Origin: a virus
Virus record (IMG/VR): IMGVR_UViG_3300045988_098382
DNA: 64,000 bases
Direction: 5' to 3' (one strand)
The notes under the pieces are model-generated. The model did not search any database. It worked only from the letters and a program-made list of their open reading frames with translations, and was not told the DNA's origin. How positions within the stretch are numbered: position 1 is the first letter of the stretch; every line of letters begins with the position of its first letter. The position numbers and the translations under genes were made by a program. Below, piece after piece: positions 1 through 61,580 of the stretch.

Positions 1-343
1 GTATATAGTTCTATCTCTAATAGCCCCATGCCTAGTTATTTGGATATAATGTTTACGACAATATGGGGTTCCCTCAAAAGAAGCCATTTTTAAATCTCCA
101 CAAATACTACATTTTTCTAAAGGCTTTTTGTGTTTTCTTTTAGAAGTATCGGTGATTTTACCATATTTATTTAATTGGTCATAGTGTTTTTCACAAACTA
201 TATAATCATTGAATCTTCTAAGTTTTCCTTCTCCTTTAGTACTTCCGCATACTTCACAGACACATTCATCTGGTATTCTTTTTCTTACTCTTTTTTCTTT
301 TATTAAATTTCTTACTTCTAAAATGTCTAATTTTTGTTCCATA
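1..343 (-). CDS. Partial (N-terminal) Zn-finger homing-endonuclease-like protein; the gene continues beyond the window start
   Basis: ATG at 343..341 on minus. Translation MEQKLDILEVRNLIKEKRV...CEVCG...CEKHY...CSICG...CRKHY has two CxxC..CxKHY zinc-finger repeats typical of HNH/NUMOD-type phage endonucleases. No stop before the window edge. Confidence 0.4.
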
Positions 344-600
344 AACTATAATTTTTATATTTACTGTTATAGAACAACTATAGACCCTCATCCTTGGGAA
401 TCAAAATTATTTTGTATATTATATTATTAACGGAGAAAATTCTTCGATTTTCTCTCTCTATGTTACCATAGAGTTCGGACTATTGCATATTTTAAATAAA
501 TTTATTTAAAATTCTCTTTATTTAGTCTCTCAGGCTGCCCATAATTGTAATAATTATTGCTTGCCCCTCGTTGTCCTTAATTTAAGGAGTTTCGAGTCAA

Positions 601-2370
601 TTAAAAGAGATTTATAGTACCCACACGTCTAGGCACTTGTTCAGTATTAAATTGGGCTATTTTAGTTTTATGTTTCTTATTCTGCTCTTTTATAGTACTA
701 AATATTAATCTACAGAATGTCTTATAATAAATATTATTATTACATTCCATTCCTAAGTATTCGGCAGCTTGATTTAAACCATTAATTCCAATAGTTAAAT
801 ACTGCTTATCAAGATTAATAAAACCGGCATCATAAGCAGCATATAAATGATGGTCTTTACACCAATGCATTAAGTCATTATAAGCATACTGATACAAATA
901 AACTCTTTCAAGAATATTTTCTATATATTTCTTAATTCCTTCTTGGAAGTCTTTATGTGTAATCCAATCTACTGGGAAACAACATTTATTGGTATTAATA
1001 TCAATATGGTCTCTATAATCAGACCAAGTATGTTGCCAATCTTGAATAATTCTGTTTAAATTAAGAGTGATGACATTCTTACTACCAGTCATTACACCTA
1101 TTTGACCATTAGTAGTATTAAATGTATTTTCTTGTACTGCATTTTGTAAACGACAACATGAACTTAAACTATCTACACTACGAGACAAATAAGTAAAGAA
1201 AGAATTTCCTTGAGCATATTCATTGCATATAAAATGGAAAGTATCTAAATCTTTAAAATTACCTTCCTTATCTGTTAAGCAAGCATAACTACATACAGGG
1301 AATGTTAAAATACATTTTAATCTTTCTTGGTTTAACCAATGTAAATAACGTCTTTGTAACCAATTAGTAGAATTCCATTCTGGCTTTGTTCCATCTGGAA
1401 ATACAAATTCTCCAAACATACCTTCAAAGAAATATTTATCAAAGAATGAAAAATTTGTAAATGGAGATTGCATTCCTCTAGCTCCTGCTATTTGATTAAT
1501 GGAATAAGTTACCTGTTGAAAATACTGATCAATTTGACTACCAATAGTTTTTTGTTTTATACAATAGTCTGTAGTTATTTTTACACTTGGTTTGAGATAA
1601 TAATTATTTCCCCATTCTTTTCTACAGAAATAATCCATATACATCAGAAACTCAGGAGTAGCTACTGCTCCTTTAATTTCAGAGGCTAATGCAAAGTTTA
1701 GATTTACATAAATACCACAGAATGAATCAAGATTCTTTGGAACGGCTGATTTACCTCCTAATTTTTCTAATCCAGATAACAAGAAAGGATACATAGAAGC
1801 TGCCATACAATATGGTTCTCCTACTTGAGAAGATGAATCATGAGGATACAAAATAGTTTTAAAATCATTCCTCATAACTTTTATATTAAAGTTAGGATCT
1901 CTCTTCTTTACAAAACTTTCCCACCATTCTGTATTAGTAAGTTTATTATCGACTTTATGTATTTCAGCGTTTAATACTCCAATGCCTTTAGTCCCTACAT
2001 TACTATTATCATCAATAGTAGCATTAGCAGTATTGTCAGACTTTACAAAATTATGAATAAATTCAATATCCCTAGTAGCATGATTTCTAATATCTTCACG
2101 TTCTTTACGATATAGAATATATTTTTTAGCTACGTCGTGGTATCCTAAATCCATTAAGAGTTCTTCAATTTGGTCTTGAATATCCTCAATAGATTGATCT
2201 TCAGTTTCTACTACAGAATTAGTTATCTCAGTAACTGCTCTGTAAGTATCTTCGTCCATTGTTTTACTAAAATTTTGGGTAATTCCAAAAGCTTTTAGTA
2301 CAGCATCTCTAATTTTGTTTCTGTTAAATTCTTCTTTAATTCCGTCTCTCTTTATTACCATAAATAACAT
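601..2370 (-). CDS. nrdD: Anaerobic ribonucleoside-triphosphate reductase (class III RNR, NrdD) with N-terminal ATP-cone. It appears to lack the C-terminal glycyl-radical motif.
   Basis: N-terminal VIKRDGIKEEFNRNKI ATP-cone. Motifs align to T4 NrdD: YPHDSS (like HVHDID), MQSPFTNFSF (like GQTPFVTITF), NVITLNLNRI (like LGVVTLNLPRI). Ends ...PRRVG-TINLF* exactly where RRxCGY is expected. Confidence 0.8.
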   Translation of the reverse strand: MLFMVIKRDGIKEEFNRNKIRDAVLKAFGITQNFSKTMDEDTYRAVTEITNSVVETEDQSIEDIQDQIEELLMDLGYHDVAKKYILYRKEREDIRNHATRDIEFIHNFVKSDNTANATIDDNSNVGTKGIGVLNAEIHKVDNKLTNTEWWESFVKKRDPNFNIKVMRNDFKTILYPHDSSSQVGEPYCMAASMYPFLLSGLEKLGGKSAVPKNLDSFCGIYVNLNFALASEIKGAVATPEFLMYMDYFCRKEWGNNYYLKPSVKITTDYCIKQKTIGSQIDQYFQQVTYSINQIAGARGMQSPFTNFSFFDKYFFEGMFGEFVFPDGTKPEWNSTNWLQRRYLHWLNQERLKCILTFPVCSYACLTDKEGNFKDLDTFHFICNEYAQGNSFFTYLSRSVDSLSSCCRLQNAVQENTFNTTNGQIGVMTGSKNVITLNLNRIIQDWQHTWSDYRDHIDINTNKCCFPVDWITHKDFQEGIKKYIENILERVYLYQYAYNDLMHWCKDHHLYAAYDAGFINLDKQYLTIGINGLNQAAEYLGMECNNNIYYKTFCRLIFSTIKEQNKKHKTKIAQFNTEQVPRRVGTINLF

Positions 2371-14855: not shown

Positions 14856-16145
14856 TCAGAATCTAAAATCAAATTTAGGAACTATCTTTTCACCTGGAGT
14901 AAAGTCTTTACCTTGTAACACTTTATCCAATTCTGATTCGTCTATAGTTATAAAAGAATCTCCTTTATGAGAATCATAAAACCACTTAGTTTCTTGAGTC
15001 CTATTTAATACTATATTGAATATCTCTGCTGTCTTACCTTTTTCAAAGCGTATTGACCTTCCTCTTCGTTGACAAGCTCTAGTAGTTGAACTATCTAATC
15101 CAAATATAATAGCTACAGAAAGACCTTTCACATCAAGTCCTTCATCAGCTTTTTTTACTGTAGATAATAAAGTTATTTTTCCAGAGTTAAAATCTTCAAT
15201 AGCTGTAGCACTTCTTTTCTTAGAAGTTCTACTAGAATATACAGTAGCATTAGGAATTTTTTCTGCCATTTTAATATTATTAGCAAAAGTTATTATTTTT
15301 TTATCCTTCCTAGCTTCTATAATTTTCTTTACTATTTCAATTTTCTTTGGATGATTATTTATGAAAGCTTTTTTCTCATGCATAGTAGCCCAAAATCTGA
15401 TAGCATGATAATTTATATTTTGTAGTACTTCAGATTTTTTGTTAGGGTCACTACACATAGAATCTCTTAGGAGCAGTTTATTTCGCCAACCCATAGGACC
15501 AGCTAATTTATTAACTAACTCCCAAGAGAATCCGAAGAATTCAAAATGAGAAATGAATTCTTTATTTATTTTTTCATATTCTTCTAAATCATCAACATTT
15601 ACTAAGACTAGATATTCTTTATATGGGCTAACCCAACCATTTGCAAGACAAGTATTAATATCAATAGTATCAATTACTGGACAATATTGTGCTAATATTT
15701 TATCTCTACCATCAAGACGCTCAAAAGTAGCTGTAAGACCTAAGATAAATTGGTATTTTACTACCTCAAATAATCTTACAAAAGTCTCAGCTGCATATCT
15801 ATGCGCCTCATCTAATACTAAAAGATCATATTTGGCAGGATGTTTTATTACAGTGTTTATTATTTGTACATCGCAACTTAATCCTAGCCCATTAGAATCT
15901 ATATGACCACACCATTGTTTTTGTAAAGTTTCTGTTGGTACAATTATTAGTACTCGATATTGTGGAAAGTGTTTTAGCACTGTTTTAATACAGTTTAGTC
16001 CTATTCTGCTCTTACCAAATCCAGTAGATGCAACTATTGTCCCTACACAACGATTTTTTATCCATTTTCTACGACATTCTTCTTGTCGTTCATCTCTAGT
16101 GATTTTATGAAATAATTCTCCCTCAATCAGAGAGTTTGTAGCCAT
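14856..16145 (-). CDS. SF2 DEAD/DEAH-box helicase (UvsW/RecG-like)
   Basis: Walker A ASTGFGKS, DEAH box LVLDEAHR, motif III GLTAT, motif VI QRRGRSIR. Confidence 0.75.
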   Translation of the reverse strand: MATNSLIEGELFHKITRDERQEECRRKWIKNRCVGTIVASTGFGKSRIGLNCIKTVLKHFPQYRVLIIVPTETLQKQWCGHIDSNGLGLSCDVQIINTVIKHPAKYDLLVLDEAHRYAAETFVRLFEVVKYQFILGLTATFERLDGRDKILAQYCPVIDTIDINTCLANGWVSPYKEYLVLVNVDDLEEYEKINKEFISHFEFFGFSWELVNKLAGPMGWRNKLLLRDSMCSDPNKKSEVLQNINYHAIRFWATMHEKKAFINNHPKKIEIVKKIIEARKDKKIITFANNIKMAEKIPNATVYSSRTSKKRSATAIEDFNSGKITLLSTVKKADEGLDVKGLSVAIIFGLDSSTTRACQRRGRSIRFEKGKTAEIFNIVLNRTQETKWFYDSHKGDSFITIDESELDKVLQGKDFTPGEKIVPKFDFRF

Positions 16146-35821: not shown

Positions 35822-35980
35822 CTTCCAAATAATATAATTCTGTTTAATATACGAAAAGCCCTTTTAACTGCAGGTATTTTGGAATCATCTGGATGTAAAT
35901 GATAATCCCGGATAACTGCATTAGCTTCATGTAGTTTCTTGATTTCTCTTAAACTATACCTATACATAAATATGACTTTA

Positions 35981-36589
35981 TTATTCTTTATTAATCATAC
36001 ATTGTCTTAATATAGCTTCATTAACTACATTATCATTTGCTCTTGCGAGTTTATCTAACAATTCCAAATTAAATTCTTCCTTTTGGAACTTGAATTGAAT
36101 CCAATCAGGTTCAAATTCTCTGTAATCTAGATGAGACAGAGGTTTATCTGTATTTAATACATCTTTAACTAGTTTAGTTAAACGTTCTCCAGCTAATTTA
36201 GATACTACAAAACCAGATAAATCATAACCTACACCTCTACTTCTCCAATATTCACCTATTTCAGGTTTAGAATCTGGAGCAACATAAAACATTTTATAAT
36301 AGTCTGAAGAACCTAAAGTTACATAAATACCTAACTGACTACTACTACATATAGATAATCCTACATAAGAATACAAGTTATTATTATGATCTAGTGTGAG
36401 GAATACTGGGACTTTATCAGGATCTAAATTATTAATTTCACAATTACGTAGTGCAGTGTGAGCATATTCAAGTAATTTAGATACTGATATAGTACTTAAC
36501 TTAGTATCTTCTTCATCTTTGTTCTCTTTAATGGCAGCATCAGAACATCTAGTGTGCCAATTTTTCCATTTATCTCCTTCTAAATACAT
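35981..36589 (-). CDS. Hypothetical protein
   Basis: 202-aa ORF. Confidence 0.45.
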   Translation of the reverse strand: MYLEGDKWKNWHTRCSDAAIKENKDEEDTKLSTISVSKLLEYAHTALRNCEINNLDPDKVPVFLTLDHNNNLYSYVGLSICSSSQLGIYVTLGSSDYYKMFYVAPDSKPEIGEYWRSRGVGYDLSGFVVSKLAGERLTKLVKDVLNTDKPLSHLDYREFEPDWIQFKFQKEEFNLELLDKLARANDNVVNEAILRQCMINKE

Positions 36590-40086: not shown

Positions 40087-41066
40087 CTATTTATATTAGT
40101 ATTGCTATATAGCCTTATTTAAAAACTCATACTACTTTCACAAGCAATGTGAGTTATCTTTAGTCACTCTTGACTAGACATAGATAATTACAAGAAATTC
40201 ATTAATTTTCACAAATTAATAAATTAATATGAGTTTAGAAATACTCATAGATACTCAAATAACCATTTTATCATAATGTAGTAGCTCAGACAAGAATCGA
40301 ACTTGCACGACCATTCCTGGTCAAGGGATTTTCCTACCACACTTGCTTTTATACAAGCTAACTTACAACCGTGCTCTTATTATTTACACCATTATCAATC
40401 CCCGAAGGATTAGCGTGAGAATTTAATCTACTGCTGTAAGTTATTGTGGTCTGGACTATTTCTTTACCATATTAGAAATGTTGCAACTTTCAAAACAGTA
40501 ATCTCTAATGTGCTTTCTCACATTACGTGAATCTTTATAGACTTCATAAGTATGTATTGAAATTTCTAACTTAGGTATCTCCTATATAGTCTCTACACAT
40601 TTATGAATACACAAATATAGAAAATTTTGTATTTAAACTTACTAATATCTTTTGCCTAGTCTCGGAAGATACTAATCATTTTCTATACGTACTTTGCATA
40701 TCCAATTTAGCTCGTCATCACCAAAACCTATGTCACCATAGGTGAGGCTTCTGTCGCAACTTGTATAAGTTGTTTAATTAGGGAGATTCTACTTCTATTG
40801 TTTCCAATAGAGCACTCAAAACTATGAAACATTTAATGAATAAGTCCCTCGTGTCTACCAATTCCACCACTGAGCCAGATTGCAACTAATTATCTGCTAG
40901 TTGCCAACAATATTTGGGAAAAACCAACATATCGTTATAAAGTTATATGCGTTCAACATCATAATCAAATCCGGATGTGTTGAGGTCTTCCATTAACCAA
41001 AATGGGTCATCCAATACATAATCATCCGGAACTTCTACTGTTACTTTTAATACTATTTTCTTCATA

Positions 41067-41615: not shown

Positions 41616-42005
41616 TTAGCCCATAATAAAACGAGCACTTATAATATTTTCAGGATGATGAATAGTTTTAGTTAATCCTTTCATCGCCCATTTCACAACA
41701 TCAGAATGTTTAACTCCACTTTTAAGTTCATGGTAAAACATTAAATCATAAGCTTCTCCACTTTTAAAAGTTACTTTGATTTTAAATGTAGGCTTTTCAT
41801 CATTTCTAATAAGTTCATTCATTTCTTCATCAGTTACCATGTAACTGAACAGAGGATTAGAAAGATGTTCTTCTTTGTACTTTTTTTCAAGTTCAGCTAA
41901 GTTTAACTTTGCACACTTGAGTACATTTTTACAACCAAATTTCTTAGCACTTTCTATTTGTGCTATTAAATTGGTTTTACTAACAAAATAATCTTGTCTT
42001 GTCAT
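41616..42005 (-). CDS. Hypothetical protein
   Basis: 129-aa ORF. Confidence 0.4.
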   Translation of the reverse strand: MTRQDYFVSKTNLIAQIESAKKFGCKNVLKCAKLNLAELEKKYKEEHLSNPLFSYMVTDEEMNELIRNDEKPTFKIKVTFKSGEAYDLMFYHELKSGVKHSDVVKWAMKGLTKTIHHPENIISARFIMG

Positions 42006-42299
42006 AATTTATCTATAATTAATGTGTTAATAATCTATTTAAATAATAGGCGATTTTCACTGGTTATATTTAAACTATTCCATTGTCCTCAGCTATCTAA
42101 CGTTCTTTTTCTTTTTAACCCAAATGATTAATTTTAAGGTAATTACGCTATTTAATAGAGTTACTGAGAGTTGTTTAGTACCTATTAAAATTGTCAGGTG
42201 TAGAGATTCGAACTCCTTAGGCTTATTCCCGTACGAGCTATTCACCAATCTAACCCCTCGTAGATGACGGTTCCCACACCGTAAGTCACCTGTTAGATT

Positions 42300-43029
42300 C
42301 TTAGTTAGAATCTTTTAAGAATAATACTAATTCTTTTTTAGTACATGGTATTTCATATTTTTTACACCATTTTCGGATTGTAGTATCTGACACATTATAA
42401 AATTTACCTACAGCAACAAATGATTTTAACTCTTTAAATTTATTTATAAAATCCTATTTAGCTGGTAAGTCTACTTTTTGTGCCATTTTAGCAGCACATT
42501 TAGGACAATATCTAGCAGCTTTTGTTTTCTTTTCTGCTCCACATAATTCACAAAAATATTTTGCAGCTTTGTTTGCTTGTCCACAATAGTTATCTGTTTG
42601 TGAATGACAATTTGGGCATAGCATTTGTAAATTCTCTAACCTATTGTCTCTATTATCGCCGTTAATATGATGTAGCTAACATATTAAAGGATTATCTAAC
42701 CAATATCCATTCTTACAAGGGCACTTAGGATTCTCACACTCATTCTTTTTAAGACCCTCTTTAATTAACTTTTCTTTTAATTTAGTGGTATGAATATATT
42801 TTCCAGTACCTAAATATTCTTTTACTGGGACATAATTCTCAATTCCTTTTTTACTCTTTGCTCCATAAGTAAAATGAGAGTAATCTATATTATACTCTTC
42901 TAATCTTTTTCTTAATGTAGCAGTATTATTACCTGCTCTAGGTATATTTAGTTTTTCTAATACCTAAGATAATGAATCACAGTCTGCAATAACTGATTCA
43001 ATTCTTTCTTTTGACCAATCATACTTCAT
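42300..43029 (-). CDS. HNH homing endonuclease requiring read-through of three in-frame TAG codons (recoded)
   Basis: Hand translation from ATG at 43029: MKYDWSKERIESVIADCDSLS[TAG]VLEKLNIPRAGNN...NPLIC[TAG]LHHINGDNRDNRLENLQMLCPNCHSQTDNYCGQ...AKMAQKVDLPAK[TAG]DFINKF...ends TAA. Contains the canonical HNH motif. No TAA/TGA in frame. Absent from the standard-code ORF track. Confidence 0.65.
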
Positions 43030-43415
43030 ATTACATATTCTTAAAATTAGAAGGATATAGAGGAGTTAAACCTCTTCTTTTGGGGTCAAATCCCAACGTG
43101 ACTGTCGTTACACCAATATCCCTTGTATCTAATAGATAGCACTGTAGTGCTACCATTACACCATAGCCCATTATTAAAACTTTCTATCTTCACAGACCGA
43201 AAGTTTTCTAACTCTTTAACGTTTTTACAATCCGCTGATTGTAATATAATAATTCAAACAATTTCTATGAATTAGTAGCACTAGCGATACTCGAAATCGC
43301 CTTTGGATCTTGAAAGAATCCCGTCCTGACCAGCTAGACGATAGTGCCAAGTAGATTCTCTATCTATCACAGACTAAGAATTCCAAGAAAAAGTAATATT
43401 AAGATAAATTCCATG

Positions 43416-43489
43416 CGCACCCTGTAGGATTCGAACCTACGACTTTCTGACTAATAGCCAGACGTTCTAACCAACTGAACTAAGAGTAC
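43416..43489 (-). tRNA. tRNA with unusual anticodon loop CUAUUAG (formal anticodon AUU; a 1-nt register shift would give UUA)
   Basis: Acceptor GUACUCU/AGGGUGC (two G-U). D GUUC/GAAC. Anticodon stem UCUGG/UCAGA. T-arm GUAGG-UUCGAAU-CCUAC. Confidence 0.5.
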
Positions 43490-43561
43490 AAATCTCTACC
43501 TATTTATCGCAAACCGGTAGAGTACCAATTTAAAACGAATATTCTTTTAAGAGAAGTTGTG

Positions 43562-43634
43562 TTCCCTACGAGATTCGGACTCGTGACCCACAGATTAAAA
43601 ATCTGTTGCTCTACCAACTGAGCTAAGAGAACTA
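43562..43634 (-). tRNA. tRNA-Lys (UUU)
   Basis: Acceptor GUUCUCU/AGGGAAC. D GCUC/GAGC. Anticodon stem ACAGA/UCUGU, loop UUUUUAA. T-arm ACGAG-UCCGAAU-CUCGU. Confidence 0.85.
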
Positions 43635-43641
43635 ATATGCA

Positions 43642-43729
43642 CACGGAGTAGGATTCGAACCCACGCTGTTCAACTTTCGTCTCTATAGGTTTTGGAGACC
43701 TACCCTTTCGACCACTCAGGCATCCGTAT
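43642..43729 (-). tRNA. Class-II-like tRNA (Tyr/Ser-like D-arm, ~20-nt variable arm) carrying anticodon CCA
   Basis: Acceptor AUACGGA/UCCGUGU. D-region CCUGAGUGGUCGAAAGGG. Anticodon stem UAGGU/ACCUA, loop CUCCAAA. T-arm GUGGG-UUCGAAU-CCUAC. Confidence 0.45.
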
Positions 43730-43733
43730 ATAG

Positions 43734-43805
43734 TGGAGATACGTGGAATCGAACCACAATCTCGGGATTTTCAGTCCCGCGCTCTGACCTTCTAAGCTAT
43801 ATCTC
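43734..43805 (-). tRNA. tRNA-Phe (GAA)
   Basis: Acceptor GGAGAUA/UAUCUCC perfect. Anticodon stem CGGGA/UCCCG, loop CUGAAAA. T-arm UGUGG-UUCGAUU-CCACG. Confidence 0.85.
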
Positions 43806-43904
43806 CGTATCCCACATTTCTTTAAGGAGAATAGTGGTAACACCTACCTATACTAATAGATTTATTAGTCAGGATTATTATACACATTAACAATATATCA
43901 AATT

Positions 43905-43990
43905 GAATTTGTACGGTAGAAAGGATTCGAACCAATGACCTTCTCGAAATGACCTATTATAAAAAGAGATGCTCTAACCACTGAGCTACT
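43905..43990 (-). ncRNA. tRNA-like gene with perfect acceptor and D-arm but a 4-bp anticodon stem enclosing a 20-nt loop and a degenerate T-stem
   Basis: Acceptor ACGGUAG/CUACCGU. D GCUC-AGUGGUUA-GAGC. UCUC-(20 nt)-GAGA. T region UGGUUCGAAUCCUUU. Same architecture as 44426..44506. Confidence 0.35.
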
Positions 43991-44050
43991 ACCGTAAGTA
44001 CTAGTTTATATCGGAAAACTAGTAAAACGTTAACACATTATTATGGAAAC

Positions 44051-44410
44051 TTAAAAGCCAAATAAATATATTACATCTTTAGATGGACTAAGACTTATAT
44101 ATGGAATATTATTTTCTTCAGTAATTGTAACGATATAATATTTATTAGTATTAATATCTTTACACATATGATATTCCATATCTCCTTGTCTTTTAGAAGA
44201 AGTAATCTTTAATACCATCTTACCCCATTTATTATTACTAAAAGTAATAGTTTTTCTAGATTCATTATAAACTACTGAGGTTTTAATGTAAAATGGGGCA
44301 CTCCATTCACCATCTTTATAAACAGTGATAGAACCATAATTAAACGCATGAGCTATTGTAGTTAATACAATAAAACTCATTAATAAAATAATCTTTTTCA
44401 TATTACTCAA
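44051..44410 (-). CDS. Secreted hypothetical protein
   Basis: Signal peptide MSNMKKIILLMSFIVLTTIAHA. Confidence 0.45.
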   Translation of the reverse strand: MSNMKKIILLMSFIVLTTIAHAFNYGSITVYKDGEWSAPFYIKTSVVYNESRKTITFSNNKWGKMVLKITSSKRQGDMEYHMCKDINTNKYYIVTITEENNIPYISLSPSKDVIYLFGF

Positions 44411-44425
44411 TCTTTTTAATATTAG

Positions 44426-44506
44426 TACGGAGTAAAGGATTCGAACCAGTATAACCTCTCTATGAATTGTGGAAGTGAGGTGCTCTAGCCATTAAGCTAA
44501 CTCCGC
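44426..44506 (-). ncRNA. tRNA-like gene, paralog of 43905..43990 (20-nt expanded anticodon region)
   Basis: Acceptor GCGGAGU/ACUCCGU. D GCUU-AAUGGCUA-GAGC. CCUC-(20 nt)-GAGG. T region UGGUUCGAAUCCUUU. Confidence 0.35.
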
Positions 44507-44511
44507 ATATG

Positions 44512-44584
44512 TGGTCCTGGTGAGAATCTAACTCACGACCCGGATTTTAGAAGAATCCTGCTCTATACACTGAGCTACAGGACC
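44512..44584 (-). tRNA. tRNA-Arg (UCU) with noncanonical T-loop UUAGAUU
   Basis: Acceptor GGUCCUG/CAGGACC perfect. D GCUC/GAGC. Anticodon stem GGAUU/AAUCC, loop CUUCUAA. T-stem GUGAG/CUCAC. Confidence 0.75.
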
Positions 44585-44637
44585 AAGTGCAACTAATTAT
44601 CTGCTAGTTGCCAACAATATATATGAACTTTACAGAA

Positions 44638-44901
44638 TTACTCTATTATTTCAGTTTCAGATATACACCATTTACCATTAATTTTAATGGCTTCTATCTG
44701 TTTATTATTTACTGTCTCAAGAGATACTTTATTTTCTAAAGTTCTATTGAGCGAAATAATGTATTTGTTAGCCTCTTCTTCAGAATTGACTACACGAGAC
44801 TGAATGCTATTGTTAATAACATTATATATCTTTCTTAAAACTTTCATAATTATAATTTTTATAAAGTTATTAATATATAGAGCATTGTTTCTCAACAACA
44901 C
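44638..44901 (-). CDS. Hypothetical protein
   Basis: 87-aa ORF. Confidence 0.4.
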   Translation of the reverse strand: MLLRNNALYINNFIKIIIMKVLRKIYNVINNSIQSRVVNSEEEANKYIISLNRTLENKVSLETVNNKQIEAIKINGKWCISETEIIE

Positions 44902-52519: not shown

Positions 52520-52917
52520 AACCTTTTTGCTTTTTAAATGTTAAACTTTTTTTTTGTTTGGTTTTTACTCCAAATATGTGGGGGGCTCTAAGGGGCAGTC
52601 TACTCCCTCCCACATAATAAAAATTAATTTTTAAATCCAAATCCTCACCTTATTTTCTCCATAAAAATCCCTATTTTTAAACCCTAGGGGGCTATATAAA
52701 ATCTTCTCTAAAAAAATTTTAAAATTTTAATTTAAAAATCTTAGAATATTAACTTTTACAAAAATTAACTTTTAATATTCCATACCTCGACTATATTACT
52801 CGTGTAATCAAAAAGAAATATTAAATGAATAAAGAACAACTAATACAAAGTATTAAAAACCTTCCTGATTAGTATAATATAAATTTATAGGTTATTGATA
52901 ATGTAATTCATATAACT

Positions 52918-53127
52918 ATGACTAAACAGGTAGATGAATTTGAAGAATATTGTAGTAAATTAGATGATGAAACATTTAATAATGCTTGTCTAATATTTGG
53001 AATTATCTCAGATATATCTTTAGAAGATTTTTCTTCTAATTTATATAATTCTAAATATAAAAAATATAAACAAGAATTTAAACATATAGTAGATTTTTTA
53101 AATGATAGAAACATTACAAAAAATTAA
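52918..53127 (+). CDS. Hypothetical protein
   Basis: 69-aa ORF at the start of the plus-strand island. Confidence 0.35.
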   Translation: MTKQVDEFEEYCSKLDDETFNNACLIFGIISDISLEDFSSNLYNSKYKKYKQEFKHIVDFLNDRNITKN

Positions 53128-53323: not shown

Positions 53324-53332
53324 AGATAATAT

Positions 53333-53404
53333 TCTCCTATGGTGTAATGGTTAGCACAGAAGACTCTAAATCTTTTAGTCAGGGTTCGAATCCTTGTGGG
53401 AGAA
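53333..53404 (+). tRNA. Amber suppressor tRNA (anticodon CUA), probably tRNA-Gln-derived
   Basis: Acceptor UCUCCUA/UGGGAGA (U1-A72, one G-U). U8. D-arm GUGU-AAUGGUUA-GCAC. Anticodon stem GAAGA/UCUUU, 7-nt loop CUCUAAA (U33, C34-U35-A36, A37). T-arm CAGGG-UUCGAAU-CCUUG. Discriminator A. Confidence 0.8.
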
Positions 53405-53496
53405 GAATAGTATAAGTAGAAACCTCCACGTGGTGCTATTCGGGTAACGCTAATTCTACTTCAAAACATAACAAAGTTTAAATTTTTAAATAAGAA

Positions 53497-54174
53497 TTGA
53501 ACATGGGTTATATTTATTGTATTACAAATTTAATTAATGAAAAGAAGTATGTTGGAAAAACAACATATTCAGTTACAAAAAGATTCCAAGAACATTGTAG
53601 GGATTCCAAAAAAGAAAGATGTGAAAGAAGACCTCTGTATGATGCTATGAATAAGTATGGTATTGAAAATTTTGTAGTGGAAGAATTAATAGAGTGTCCG
53701 AATGATGAGCTAGATTCATATGAAAAAATGTATATAGAAAAATTACAAACTTACGGACACAATGGCTATAATGCTACTAAAGGTGGAGATGGCTCTATAC
53801 TATTTGATTATGATAAAATTATTGAAACCTACGCGTTAGGAGGTACTATGACTGAATGTGCTGCCAAAATGCATTGTTCAGTAGATACAGTTAAAAAAGT
53901 ATTAACTATTAATAATATTCCTATAAGACATAATCGAAGAGGTTGTTGTTCTGACCCTAAAAAAGTAGAACAATATTCTCTTGAGGGAGTCTTTATAAAA
54001 GAATGGGAAAGTATAACATTAGCTGCTCATTGGTTAGTAGATAATGGTTATGCTAAAACTTATAATAGTGGAGTAAAACAAAAAATAAGATTATGTATGC
54101 GAGGAAAAAATAAAACAGCATATAAATTTATTTGGAAATTTCCTCAAGAAGAACATGATATCAGCAATTTATGA
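53497..54174 (+). CDS. GIY-YIG homing endonuclease
   Basis: N-terminal GYIYCITNLINEKKYVGKTT...RFQEH matches the GIY-(10-11)-YIG core with Arg and Glu. C-terminal basic DNA-binding region. Confidence 0.8.
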   Translation: MNMGYIYCITNLINEKKYVGKTTYSVTKRFQEHCRDSKKERCERRPLYDAMNKYGIENFVVEELIECPNDELDSYEKMYIEKLQTYGHNGYNATKGGDGSILFDYDKIIETYALGGTMTECAAKMHCSVDTVKKVLTINNIPIRHNRRGCCSDPKKVEQYSLEGVFIKEWESITLAAHWLVDNGYAKTYNSGVKQKIRLCMRGKNKTAYKFIWKFPQEEHDISNL

Positions 54175-60662: not shown

Positions 60663-61338
60663 TTTAGGAATTAATTTAAGCATTTCTAAATTTATTTATA
60701 TATTTTGCAACATTAGTACCATTAGCATCAGATCCTCCTGTAATACCATACTTATAATAATTTTTAGCCCATGTTGGATTTAGCCATGATGCTGCTATAG
60801 CTTCTCCAGTAACTGTTATACCATTATTTCTTAAAAATCTTGCATTATCATCATATAATTGTGAAGCAGCTAATACTTGTGCATCAGGGCTATTTTTAAA
60901 TTGTTCTCTAGATAAATTAGAATAACTTTTTCTAGTACTATCTATAAACTAAAAATATCCAGCAGCAGAACTATTTTTAGACTAAGCTTTAGGGTTAAAT
61001 CTTGATTCTAAAGAAGCTATCTTCATTAAAGTAGTTTTCTTGTTTCCAGTGATACCATATTTATCTAAAGTCTACTCTAGTATCTACTTATTTTTACTAG
61101 GAGTATTATGATTTAATTTAAGCTAGGTATATTTATATTGTACAGGCTCTTTAGCTTTGTTAATAGAAAAATATCCATCTAAATTTAAACCATTAATATG
61201 AAAATCTCCAGTATTTAATTCAGGAATAAACTAATATTGCCTAGGAGTAAAATCTAAATCTAAGCCTTTACTTTTTAGTACTTCTGTAGCAGGTTTATCA
61301 GGAATATCTAAAGCTTCATATTTAAAATATTCACTCAT
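60655..61338 (-). CDS. Lytic transglycosylase (SLT domain, family-1 lysozyme-like) encoded with 7 in-frame TAG codons
   Basis: ...MKIASLESRFNPKA[TAG]SKNSSAAGYF[TAG]FIDSTRKSYS... matches the SLT consensus E-S-x-F-N-P-x-A-x-S-x-x-G-A-x-G-L-M-Q-(F/L). The invariant Gln of GLMQ is supplied by a TAG codon. ATGA overlap with the upstream HNH gene. Stop TAA. Confidence 0.75.
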
Positions 61339-61580
61339 AATTTTATTAAACCATTATGTATTTTAGAATGACAATTTTTACAAACACAAACTGTTTGAGA
61401 TAATTCTTTAATAAATAAATCTGTAGGTATGTGACTTACAGCTTGTGATATATTAAATAATTTTTCTCCAATATGATGAAATTCTAAACAACATTTAGCT
61501 GATTCACCACATACTATACATTGTGTTTTATGTTCATTTAAAATCTTTTTATTTTCTTTATAATATTTATTCTTACGCAT
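61335..61580 (-). CDS. Small HNH endonuclease
   Basis: CIVCGESAKCCLEFHHIGEKLFN...CVCKNCHSKIHNG: CxxC + HH...N + CxxCH..H HNH/Zn motif. Standard-code ORF. Confidence 0.6.
   Translation of the reverse strand: MRKNKYYKENKKILNEHKTQCIVCGESAKCCLEFHHIGEKLFNISQAVSHIPTDLFIKELSQTVCVCKNCHSKIHNGLIKL

Follow-up and report, generated by a model that had tools for sequence, protein, structure and literature searches.

An HNH homing-endonuclease gene with its own tRNA-Gln has probably split and replaced a resident tRNA-Gln in a phage tRNA array

HNH and GIY-YIG endonucleases, F-TflI to F-TflIV, are encoded in the transfer RNA (tRNA) region of phage T5. In phage T4 the tRNA gene cluster holds the gene for SegB, a free-standing GIY-YIG homing endonuclease (PMC2330249). 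Group I introns are inserted in the anticodon loops of cyanobacterial and plastid tRNA-Leu(UAA), of the tRNA-Ile of Azoarcus and of tRNAs of Patescibacteria (PMC13011429), some of them with endonuclease genes. Agate phages carry a TGA-recoded (Trp) endonuclease gene within a group I intron of an early protein gene, and its recoded stops were argued to delay the enzyme until late infection (Borges et al., bioRxiv 10.1101/2021.08.26.457843). The Lak megaphages possess 'enigmatic' polymorphic tRNA introns, including a tRNA-Thr intron which possibly encodes a tRNA (Devoto et al. 2019, PMC6784885), and Zeta crAss-like phages with genomes of 145-192 kb show a turnover of endonucleases, introns and inteins (PMC12386605; Yutin et al. 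2021, PMC7886860). The presence of endonucleases within the tRNA clusters of phages, the recoding of endonuclease genes and the turnover of endonucleases among large crAss-like phages are already published. Here we describe an HNH gene which follows a tRNA-Gln gene in the tRNA array of a stretch of 64,000 nucleotides (nt) of virus DNA (IMG/VR record IMGVR_UViG_3300045988_098382), hereafter called the window.

The comparisons given below suggest that this gene probably encodes a functional, free-standing HNH homing endonuclease, which forms a two-gene cassette with its own tRNA-Gln and has split and replaced a resident tRNA-Gln. Three features are central to this interpretation:

42301..43029, minus strand: probable free-standing HNH homing-endonuclease gene, 242 amino acids (aa), matching phrog_10822
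43050..43122, minus strand: cassette-linked tRNA-Gln(UUG), here tRNA-Gln', 46.3 bits
43142..43170, minus strand: presumed relic of the resident tRNA-Gln, 29 nt comprising acceptor, D-arm and part of the anticodon stem (TGGGCTATGGTGTAATGGTAGCACTACAG)

The 3' end of tRNA-Gln', the sole tRNA-Gln in the window, lies 21 nt upstream of the HNH start codon, and the remainder of the resident tRNA-Gln seems to have been lost after insertion of the cassette.

The HNH gene starts with an ATG at 43029, stops with a TAA at 42303-42301 and contains three in-frame TAG codons, at residues 22 (42966-42964), 118 (42678-42676) and 192 (42456-42454). With Gln placed at TAG, the phrog_10822 family ('HNH endonuclease') aligns to the 242-aa protein over the full length (E 2e-42), and 1254 homologues were found at E<=1e-5. 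A protein with 100% identity is the head of a sequence cluster with 511 members. The His-His...Asn...Asn...His motif of HNH enzymes is present together with its flanking Cys pairs, and the catalytic motif C117-Q118-L-H120-H121-I-N-G124...N129...N133-L...C138-P-N-C141-H142 is invariant in 25 and in 30 homologues. The second TAG codon specifies Q118, an invariant Gln within this motif.

The genetic context of these codons was determined by a census of 43 open reading frames (ORFs) of the window, 35 early and 8 late, in which TAG was read through. The window has a G+C content of 29%, the majority of its genes are on the minus strand, and 18 tRNAs were detected by ARAGORN. Under TAG readthrough the ORFs fall into two classes, those from 601 to 54439 being essentially free of TAG and those from 54679 onward being rich in it. 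TAG accounts for none of 216 Gln codons in the early ORFs and for 95 of 148 in the late ORFs, one of which (945 aa) holds 47 in-frame TAG, and it terminates none of the 43 ORFs examined; TAA is the main stop codon (33 of 43). The late module from 54679 decodes TAG as Gln, a type of recoding known from crAss-like and Lak phages: TAG stands at conserved Gln positions, the phage encodes a tRNA(CUA), and TAG is never a stop, in line with code 15 (TAG = Gln). Incorporation of Gln at TAG has been published for crAss-like phages (PMC9523058). Within the TAG-free region the HNH gene is the only convincing ORF with TAG codons (the 35 sampled ORFs have none), and with TAG as three of its seven Gln codons it shows a usage of the late type.

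Read with the standard code the HNH ORF breaks into four pieces, and copies at two related loci are truncated or riddled with stops, as might be expected if the gene were a dead pseudogene and its three TAG codons nonsense mutations. We consider this very improbable. Each of the three stops is a TAG, no frameshift, TAA or TGA interrupts the frame, the family alignment is full-length, the phage encodes a tRNA(CUA), and 95 Gln codons of its late genes are TAG. The homologues from contigs of 165, 241 and 454 kb contain three to six in-frame TAG each, mostly at Gln columns; the Gln columns that bear TAG differ among homologues, and the three conserved ones are 119, 136 and 145. With TAG counted as Gln, the ratio of nonsynonymous to synonymous substitution rates (dN/dS) is 0.074 against locus L015 and 0.097 against locus L009 (Lnnn denotes the related loci or contigs compared, L005 being MT835492 and L006 MT835539). 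The movement of TAG among conserved Gln positions from one homologue to the next, and a dN/dS below 0.1, show that TAG in this gene is a sense codon and not a sign of decay. By these comparisons the gene is intact and under purifying selection, and because its TAG codons are sense codons, its translation would depend on the suppressor tRNA. The same had been proposed in an earlier sequence-only reading of the window, and homologue TAG positions, dN/dS and codon usage all bear it out.

In most of 80 IMG/VR loci the family is found within tRNA arrays on the strand of the tRNAs, more distant members mostly downstream of tRNA-Leu(UAA), and it seems to live almost only in phage tRNA clusters. A tRNA-Gln(UUG) followed after 3-22 nt by the ATG of the HNH gene is present in the window and in L007, L009, L010, L011, L015-L018, L020, L023, L024 and L030. 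The cassette tRNA-Gln sequences diverge considerably and keep the cloverleaf via paired changes.

In relatives this pair is found inside a second tRNA-Gln. The clearest case is L009, where the 5' half of the resident gene terminates with ...GCAGAUUU, at U34, and the 3' half (UGAUUCUGC...UAGUCCA) restarts 75 nt past the HNH stop codon. Both halves flank the cassette in L009, L022, L024 and L030; the 5' half ends with ...AGAUUU (U34) in L009, L024 and L030, and the halves in L022 are devoid of the anticodon arm. Only the 5' half is left in the window and L015, only the 3' half in L007 and L016. The relatives thus place the insertion between U34 and U35, in the anticodon loop of the resident gene.

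Such an arrangement could also be read as a true intron of the resident tRNA-Gln, removed from the RNA so that both tRNAs work. The insertion point U34|U35 is the same in several lineages, the acceptor strands pair perfectly at the four loci that retain both halves, polymorphic introns have been reported in tRNAs of Lak phages, with a tRNA possibly encoded in one of them (PMC6784885), and real group I introns occur in the anticodon loops of the tRNA(CUA) of relatives and of the tRNA-Leu(UAA) of the window. Nevertheless, splicing of the cassette is improbable. Between the halves there are about 9-15 nt before the tRNA, about 20 nt from it to the ORF and 10-75 nt after the ORF, which leaves neither room for nor trace of a group I core, and AGACUA/AUAGUC elements are missing from it. 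In the window itself the surroundings of the HNH gene gave no Rfam match to a group I ribozyme, and no core elements were seen in its flanks. The junctions lack the terminal G that group I introns require (L009 ...AAAGUA|UGAUUC), four loci including the window have a single half, and of those with both, L022 has no anticodon arm and L030 has lost U35. Because there is no group I core, no terminal G at the junctions and the halves are truncated, we regard the halves as remains of a split resident gene and not as exons. The sequence-only reading had raised target-site duplications and intron structures as possible marks of mobility next to the endonuclease genes. No duplications were found, and none are expected for homing; intron structures proved to exist at the nrdD endonuclease, in the tRNA-Leu(UAA) of the window and in the tRNA(CUA) of relatives (see below), but not at the HNH gene of the tRNA array.

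The site is highly polymorphic. About 21 related loci have the order tRNA-Ser, tRNA-Gln and a 140-nt element described below, and six others, including Lak-C1 and a 554-kb contig, have tRNA-Gln, a tRNA-like element and the 140-nt element, all of them without the HNH gene. Three loci carry the HNH cassette at this site, and about 27 of 30 are without it. The copies represent stages of decay, that of the window being intact, that of L007/L008 truncated at 169 aa and that of L016 interrupted by seven TAA or TGA stops. In MT835539 the downstream flank is 97.6% identical, the stretch 42195-43146 is missing, and an intact, different tRNA-Gln adjoins the 140-nt element. To judge from these loci, presence, absence and decay follow the pattern expected of a homing endonuclease.

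The proposed course of events is as follows. A cassette of tRNA-Gln(UUG), about 20 nt and the HNH gene would travel as one unit and insert between the anticodon nucleotides U34 and U35 of a resident tRNA-Gln. The enzyme would cut intact tRNA-Gln genes, and the cassette would spread by repair of the double-strand break. The tRNA-Gln of the cassette would resist cutting and compensate for the disrupted gene, so that the resident gene could decay, in the window to the 5' relic of 29 nt. The protein would be made only with the suppressor active, presumably during translation of the TAG-rich late genes. 

A protein that is purely selfish need not be assumed: it could have been co-opted to the benefit of the phage, by excluding or out-competing co-infecting phages or by recombination and amplification of tRNA genes. 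The strong purifying selection, the identical protein in 511 database sequences and the tie of the whole family to tRNA arrays would fit such a role, SegB gives preferred inheritance of the T4 tRNA region (PMC2330249), and a 2026 report describes amplification of anti-defence tRNA loci by SegB (PMC13096335). However, absence from about 27 of 30 related loci and decay in two of three carriers resemble selfish invasion followed by decay, which makes co-option unlikely as the leading explanation; it is compatible with the homing cassette.

Several points weigh against the cassette interpretation. The Pfam matches of the 242-aa protein stay below the curated cut-offs (HNH_3 21.3 bits versus 24.8, HNH 18.0 versus 21.4), and so do the zinc-ribbon and helix-turn-helix matches on either side of the HNH region. 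An AlphaFold2 model was locally confident, with a predicted local distance difference test score of 85.8 and a predicted template modelling score of 0.40, and a Foldseek search with it against the PDB gave no match below E 0.1; the top weak matches, all above E 0.1, were the HNH nucleases McrA, Cas5-HNH, Cap5 and colicins. A sequence search of the PDB matched the C-terminal helix-turn-helix only. The target site of the enzyme is deduced from the insertion point alone, and its late production, also assumed in the sequence-only reading, from the presumed timing of tRNA(CUA). As the window is without the resident 3' half, the history of the insertion was reconstructed from relatives. Finally, L108 has a cassette-type tRNA-Gln beside the 140-nt element without an HNH gene and without relic halves, so tRNA-Gln' could be no more than an allele that once received the HNH gene as a neighbour; the pair may have begun in this way, with an endonuclease gene landing next to a tRNA-Gln allele of the cassette type.

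Downstream of the HNH gene the array continues with two non-coding elements:

42194..42292, minus strand: non-decoding tRNA-like element with acceptor-like stem, D-arm, T-arm and variable hairpins
42046..42185, minus strand: near-invariant non-coding element of 140 nt, AUAGGUAC...GCCUAU

In the tRNA-like element CAGGTG pairs with CACCTG in the acceptor-like stem; there are also a D-arm and a GGAGTTCGAATCTCT T-arm. ARAGORN made no call at default or intron settings and Rfam gave no match at E<=1; relaxed ARAGORN scores yielded only inconsistent low-score calls. The supposed anticodon loop, of 8 nt in the window against 6 nt in Lak-C1, is not conserved. The element is an independent polymorphic unit, since MT835539 lacks it and Lak-C1 is among the contigs that have it without an HNH gene.

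The 140-nt element is in every case the immediate 3' neighbour of a tRNA-Gln, of the tRNA-like element or of tRNA-Gln'. Its sequence hardly varies among 38 IMG/VR contigs of 52-554 kb, which belong to Lak-like phages, crAss-like Suoliviridae and phages of about 180 kb; together with the tRNA-like element it is 89% identical in Lak-C1. RNAalifold predicted a closing stem and four compensatory pairs, and the element is probably a structured RNA. Single-sequence folding of 42020-42300 gave a stability as in shuffled sequence (z = 0.31), and for the 140-nt element and the tRNA-like stretch no Rfam family was found, neither in a gathering scan of the whole window nor in an E-value scan of 41900-44700. 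A small ORF was ruled out, because the clades differ by compensatory changes within RNA helices, not by synonymous ones. A search of bacterial genomes with a 19-mer of the element returned three chance matches; as these showed no similarity beyond the word, the element is not host-derived.

The tRNA array and its surroundings contain further mobile elements, of which those in or next to tRNA genes are considered first:

53332..53405, plus strand: suppressor tRNA(CUA), intact and intron-less (ARAGORN), reads TAG codons
53406..54174, plus strand: GIY-YIG homing-endonuclease cassette, 66-nt leader and ORF 53497-54174
40282..40876, minus strand: tRNA-Leu(UAA), split at U34|A35 by an ORF-less group I intron of 509 nt (40333-40841)

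Comparison of 16 related tRNA(CUA) loci revealed 10 intact genes, 4 with an insertion of 1003 nt (MT835539, L149, L150, L153) and 2 with an insertion of 219-223 nt (L146, L151). The long insertion is located after CUCU of the anticodon loop and encodes a 272-aa HNH protein without TAG codons, which is a distant relative of the HNH protein of the tRNA array (27% identity over the first ~190 residues, E 8e-18). The short insertion is at the same point and has no ORF. Its P1 helix places a U.G pair at the splice site (CUCU|UAAUAUAAGGAG), AGAGACUAUA and GAUGAAGAAAUAGUCC are its core strings, its last nucleotide is G, and the Rfam family Intron_gpI matches it weakly over the full length (16.8 bits, E 0.052). 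The long insertion shares its core layout, and the Rfam group I model gave no match to the tRNA(CUA) intron of MT835539. Intron calls in this work were based on precise interruption, a restored tRNA or reading frame, core consensus elements and a terminal G.

In MT835539 the interrupted tRNA(CUA) spans 14990-16047 and is missed by ARAGORN (one relative was scanned). This record and MT835492, both unannotated human-gut scaffolds with 92-97% identity, are the records closest to the window, together with IMG/VR and ENA contigs of 140-190 kb. Since the late genes of MT835539 and MT835492 use TAG and no second tRNA(CUA) was found in these two scaffolds (176 kb), which may be an incomplete genome, the interrupted tRNA(CUA) has to be spliced.

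Splicing of the tRNA-Leu(UAA) in silico results in a clean tRNA of 87 nt. The split gene was missed by ARAGORN and by the Rfam gathering scan, and its intron gave a weak match to the Rfam group I model (13.8 bits). Parts of this region are about 84% identical to Lak-B phages and to the crAss-like phage cr116_1, where the matching stretch is annotated as 'DNA primase', and 69% identical to IAS virus.

The GIY-YIG cassette starts directly at the 3' end of tRNA(CUA), at 53406 after a tRNA end at 53405, so that the endonuclease indeed abuts the suppressor as the sequence-only reading had stated; its ORF begins about 92 nt after the tRNA. PF01541 matches the ORF with 37.8 bits (cut-off 22.6) and phrog_314 with E 7e-27. 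Relative to L143 and L105, positions 53472-54154 constitute a clean insertion of 683 bp, and the insertion was absent from 15 related loci searched by tblastn (some with little downstream sequence) and from 9 compared by flank alignment. MT835492 has a GIY-YIG paralogue at 35859-36578 (minus strand, 72% DNA identity) right after tRNA-Met in its tRNA array; it has leader sequence in common with that of the window, four in-frame TAG and no ATG start. Directly upstream of tRNA(CUA), at 52825-53127 on the plus strand, lies a 100-aa ORF with two in-frame TAG. It has the same orientation as tRNA(CUA) and the GIY-YIG gene and is part of a small plus-strand cluster at the boundary of early and late genes.

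These data bear on an idea of the sequence-only reading, namely that the endonucleases are the vehicle by which the suppressor tRNA, as a recoding cassette, spreads between phages. An intact tRNA(CUA) stands directly upstream of tRNA-Gln' and the HNH gene in L011, three types of mobile element target tRNA(CUA) (group I intron, group I intron with HNH gene, GIY-YIG cassette), and SegB of T4 co-converts flanking tRNA genes (PMC2330249). Moreover, three contigs have the same tRNA(CUA), 95% identical over 85 nt, between unrelated flanks. Nevertheless, of the 16 related loci the 15 whose flanks were compared (all but L153) share these flanks and hold tRNA(CUA) in the same place, whichever mobile element is present, and in the three contigs where the flanks are unrelated tRNA(CUA) is solitary: neither 3 kb of upstream sequence nor the 1.3-3 kb of downstream sequence available there contains an endonuclease. 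No case was found in which the suppressor was gained or lost between relatives together with an endonuclease. The idea is therefore quite unlikely to hold: the suppressor tRNA gene is a hot spot for mobile elements, and the endonucleases appear to parasitise tRNA genes rather than to carry the suppressor.

The remaining two endonuclease genes lie at the ends of the window:

1..343, minus strand: N-terminal Zn-finger part of an intron-borne HNH_3 endonuclease ORF, ending at the window edge
344..631, minus strand: 5' part of a group I intron interrupting nrdD, with GAGAGACUAAAUAAAGAG, P8 hairpin, AUGCAAUAGUCC and P9
632..2370, minus strand: nrdD exon 1 (the listed ORF 601-2370 reads into the intron up to a stop)
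61335..61580, minus strand: small HNH protein gene, 81 aa, no TAG, phrog_3106 E 2e-13

All four endonuclease ORFs and the tRNA-like stretch were placed correctly by the sequence-only reading. Its assignment of 1-343 to the HNH/Zn-finger type holds for the Zn-finger N-terminus, while the fragment within the window has no HNH match of its own; in a 97%-identical contig of 167 kb the same frame, frameshifted there, runs on into an ORF with PF13392 (HNH_3). A homologue search with the 114-aa fragment returned two proteins only. The order in the 167-kb contig is NrdD part 1, the ORF corresponding to 1-343 running into the HNH_3 ORF, and NrdD part 2. In MT835492 the nrdD junction is uninterrupted (...EQVP|AESA...) and the intron endonuclease is missing; its nrdD has an intein with a LAGLIDADG domain at another position. 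The 290 nt past the junction bear group I core elements, and the insertion terminates with ...AUG. Judged by these elements and the exon order, the ORF at 1-343 lies in an endonuclease-carrying group I intron of nrdD, to which the Rfam group I model gave no match.

The small HNH gene at 61335-61580 is collinear in 9 relatives (about 95% identity), and 21 contigs have a recognisable copy. It looks conserved and core-like, and the mobility assumed for it was not borne out; the other three endonucleases do vary in presence among close relatives. The genome and its relatives hold, besides the HNH cassette, further mobile elements aimed at tRNA genes and nrdD, i.e. group I introns with or without HNH genes, the GIY-YIG cassette and inteins.

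Further insertions which the window lacks were seen in L005 (8522-9579 and 24972-25943) and L006 (22949-23608 and 25401-26421). Such extra insertions of the relatives include the LAGLIDADG intein of nrdD, a free-standing LAGLIDADG ORF, a Cys-rich ORF with six TAG and no family match, and a weak LAGLIDADG-containing insertion in a 647-aa ORF. A tRNA with the anticodon UUA (43911-43995, minus strand, 85 nt), which would decode TAA although TAA serves as the main stop codon, is kept in MT835539 and several IMG/VR relatives, with two copies in L125. Between 26599 and 27894 and between 43050 and 44584 ARAGORN called unusually long tRNAs (Trp 91 nt, Tyr 85, Met 82, Asn 82, Gly 79), and an additional tRNA at 44426-44506, an Rfam call only, has a loop of about 20 nt at the position of the anticodon loop; these tRNAs may contain small insertions. 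A transfer-messenger RNA (tmRNA) is encoded by the phage at 35046-35377 on the minus strand (RF00023, 48.1 bits versus a gathering score of 47), and tmRNA is also annotated in the crAss-like phages cr124_1 and cr7_1. The segment 22193-24046, with a higher G+C content (0.35) and missing from MT835492, carries genes for a nicotinamide phosphoribosyltransferase (Pfam NAPRTase and NAMPT_N) and DUF5662.

By bringing along a second copy of the tRNA gene that it disrupts, an endonuclease would have a simple route of invasion into an essential gene family. More tentatively, and at somewhat less than even odds, the HNH homing family may in general spread as a composite cassette with its own replacement tRNA, splitting and substituting for the resident tRNA-Gln, and the same arrangement may account for three further observations. 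If so, a replacement-tRNA cassette would explain the cases of a tRNA inside a tRNA intron in Lak phages. Suppressor tRNAs missed in annotation would be accounted for by interruption with introns: TAG suppressors were detected in only ~40% of TAG-recoded phage genomes (Borges et al., bioRxiv 10.1101/2021.08.26.457843), and the intron-interrupted tRNA(CUA), present in 6 of 16 related loci, could explain part of this gap. Co-conversion driven by endonucleases would account for near-identical tRNA-linked sequences such as the 140-nt RNA in contigs of 52-554 kb from unrelated phages. The tRNA clusters are apparently a zone in which near-identical DNA is exchanged among Lak, crAss-like and ~180-kb phages.

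Neither a cassette that joins tRNA-Gln to an HNH gene nor a phage suppressor tRNA interrupted by group I introns was found described in the literature searched, which is no proof that no such description exists. The closest likeness is to SegB of T4, which is also a free-standing endonuclease among phage tRNA genes, present or absent among relatives, and like SegB the HNH enzyme of the window would be expected to drag flanking tRNA genes along by co-conversion. Unlike SegB, it is an HNH protein (phrog_10822), recoded with TAG and linked to its own tRNA-Gln, and belongs to a type of cassette which in relatives is nested in the anticodon loop of another tRNA-Gln. With the known tRNA group I introns the locus shares insertion in the anticodon loop. 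The tRNA-Leu intron of the window is at the canonical position U34|A35, and the tRNA(CUA) insertions of relatives have the P1 U.G pair, the AGACUA/AUAGUC core elements and the terminal G, whereas the HNH cassette has no ribozyme and holds a whole tRNA instead.

As in the Agate endonuclease, a gene full of a reassigned stop codon lies inside an otherwise standard-code early region; in the window, however, TAG stands for Gln and the gene is free-standing in a tRNA array. The Lak tRNA introns likewise have a tRNA nested in the anticodon region of a tRNA, variable in presence and near-identical across genomes, but the nested unit described here includes an HNH gene and the outer tRNA halves are decaying, which argues for homing plus replacement rather than splicing. 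The window resembles the Zeta crAss-like phages in large genomes, TAG recoding and many tRNAs, a likeness by features and not an assignment to this clade, and in that close relatives differ mainly in the endonucleases they carry. In contrast to the published descriptions of those phages, it and its relatives have the tRNA-Gln cassette and introns in the suppressor tRNA.

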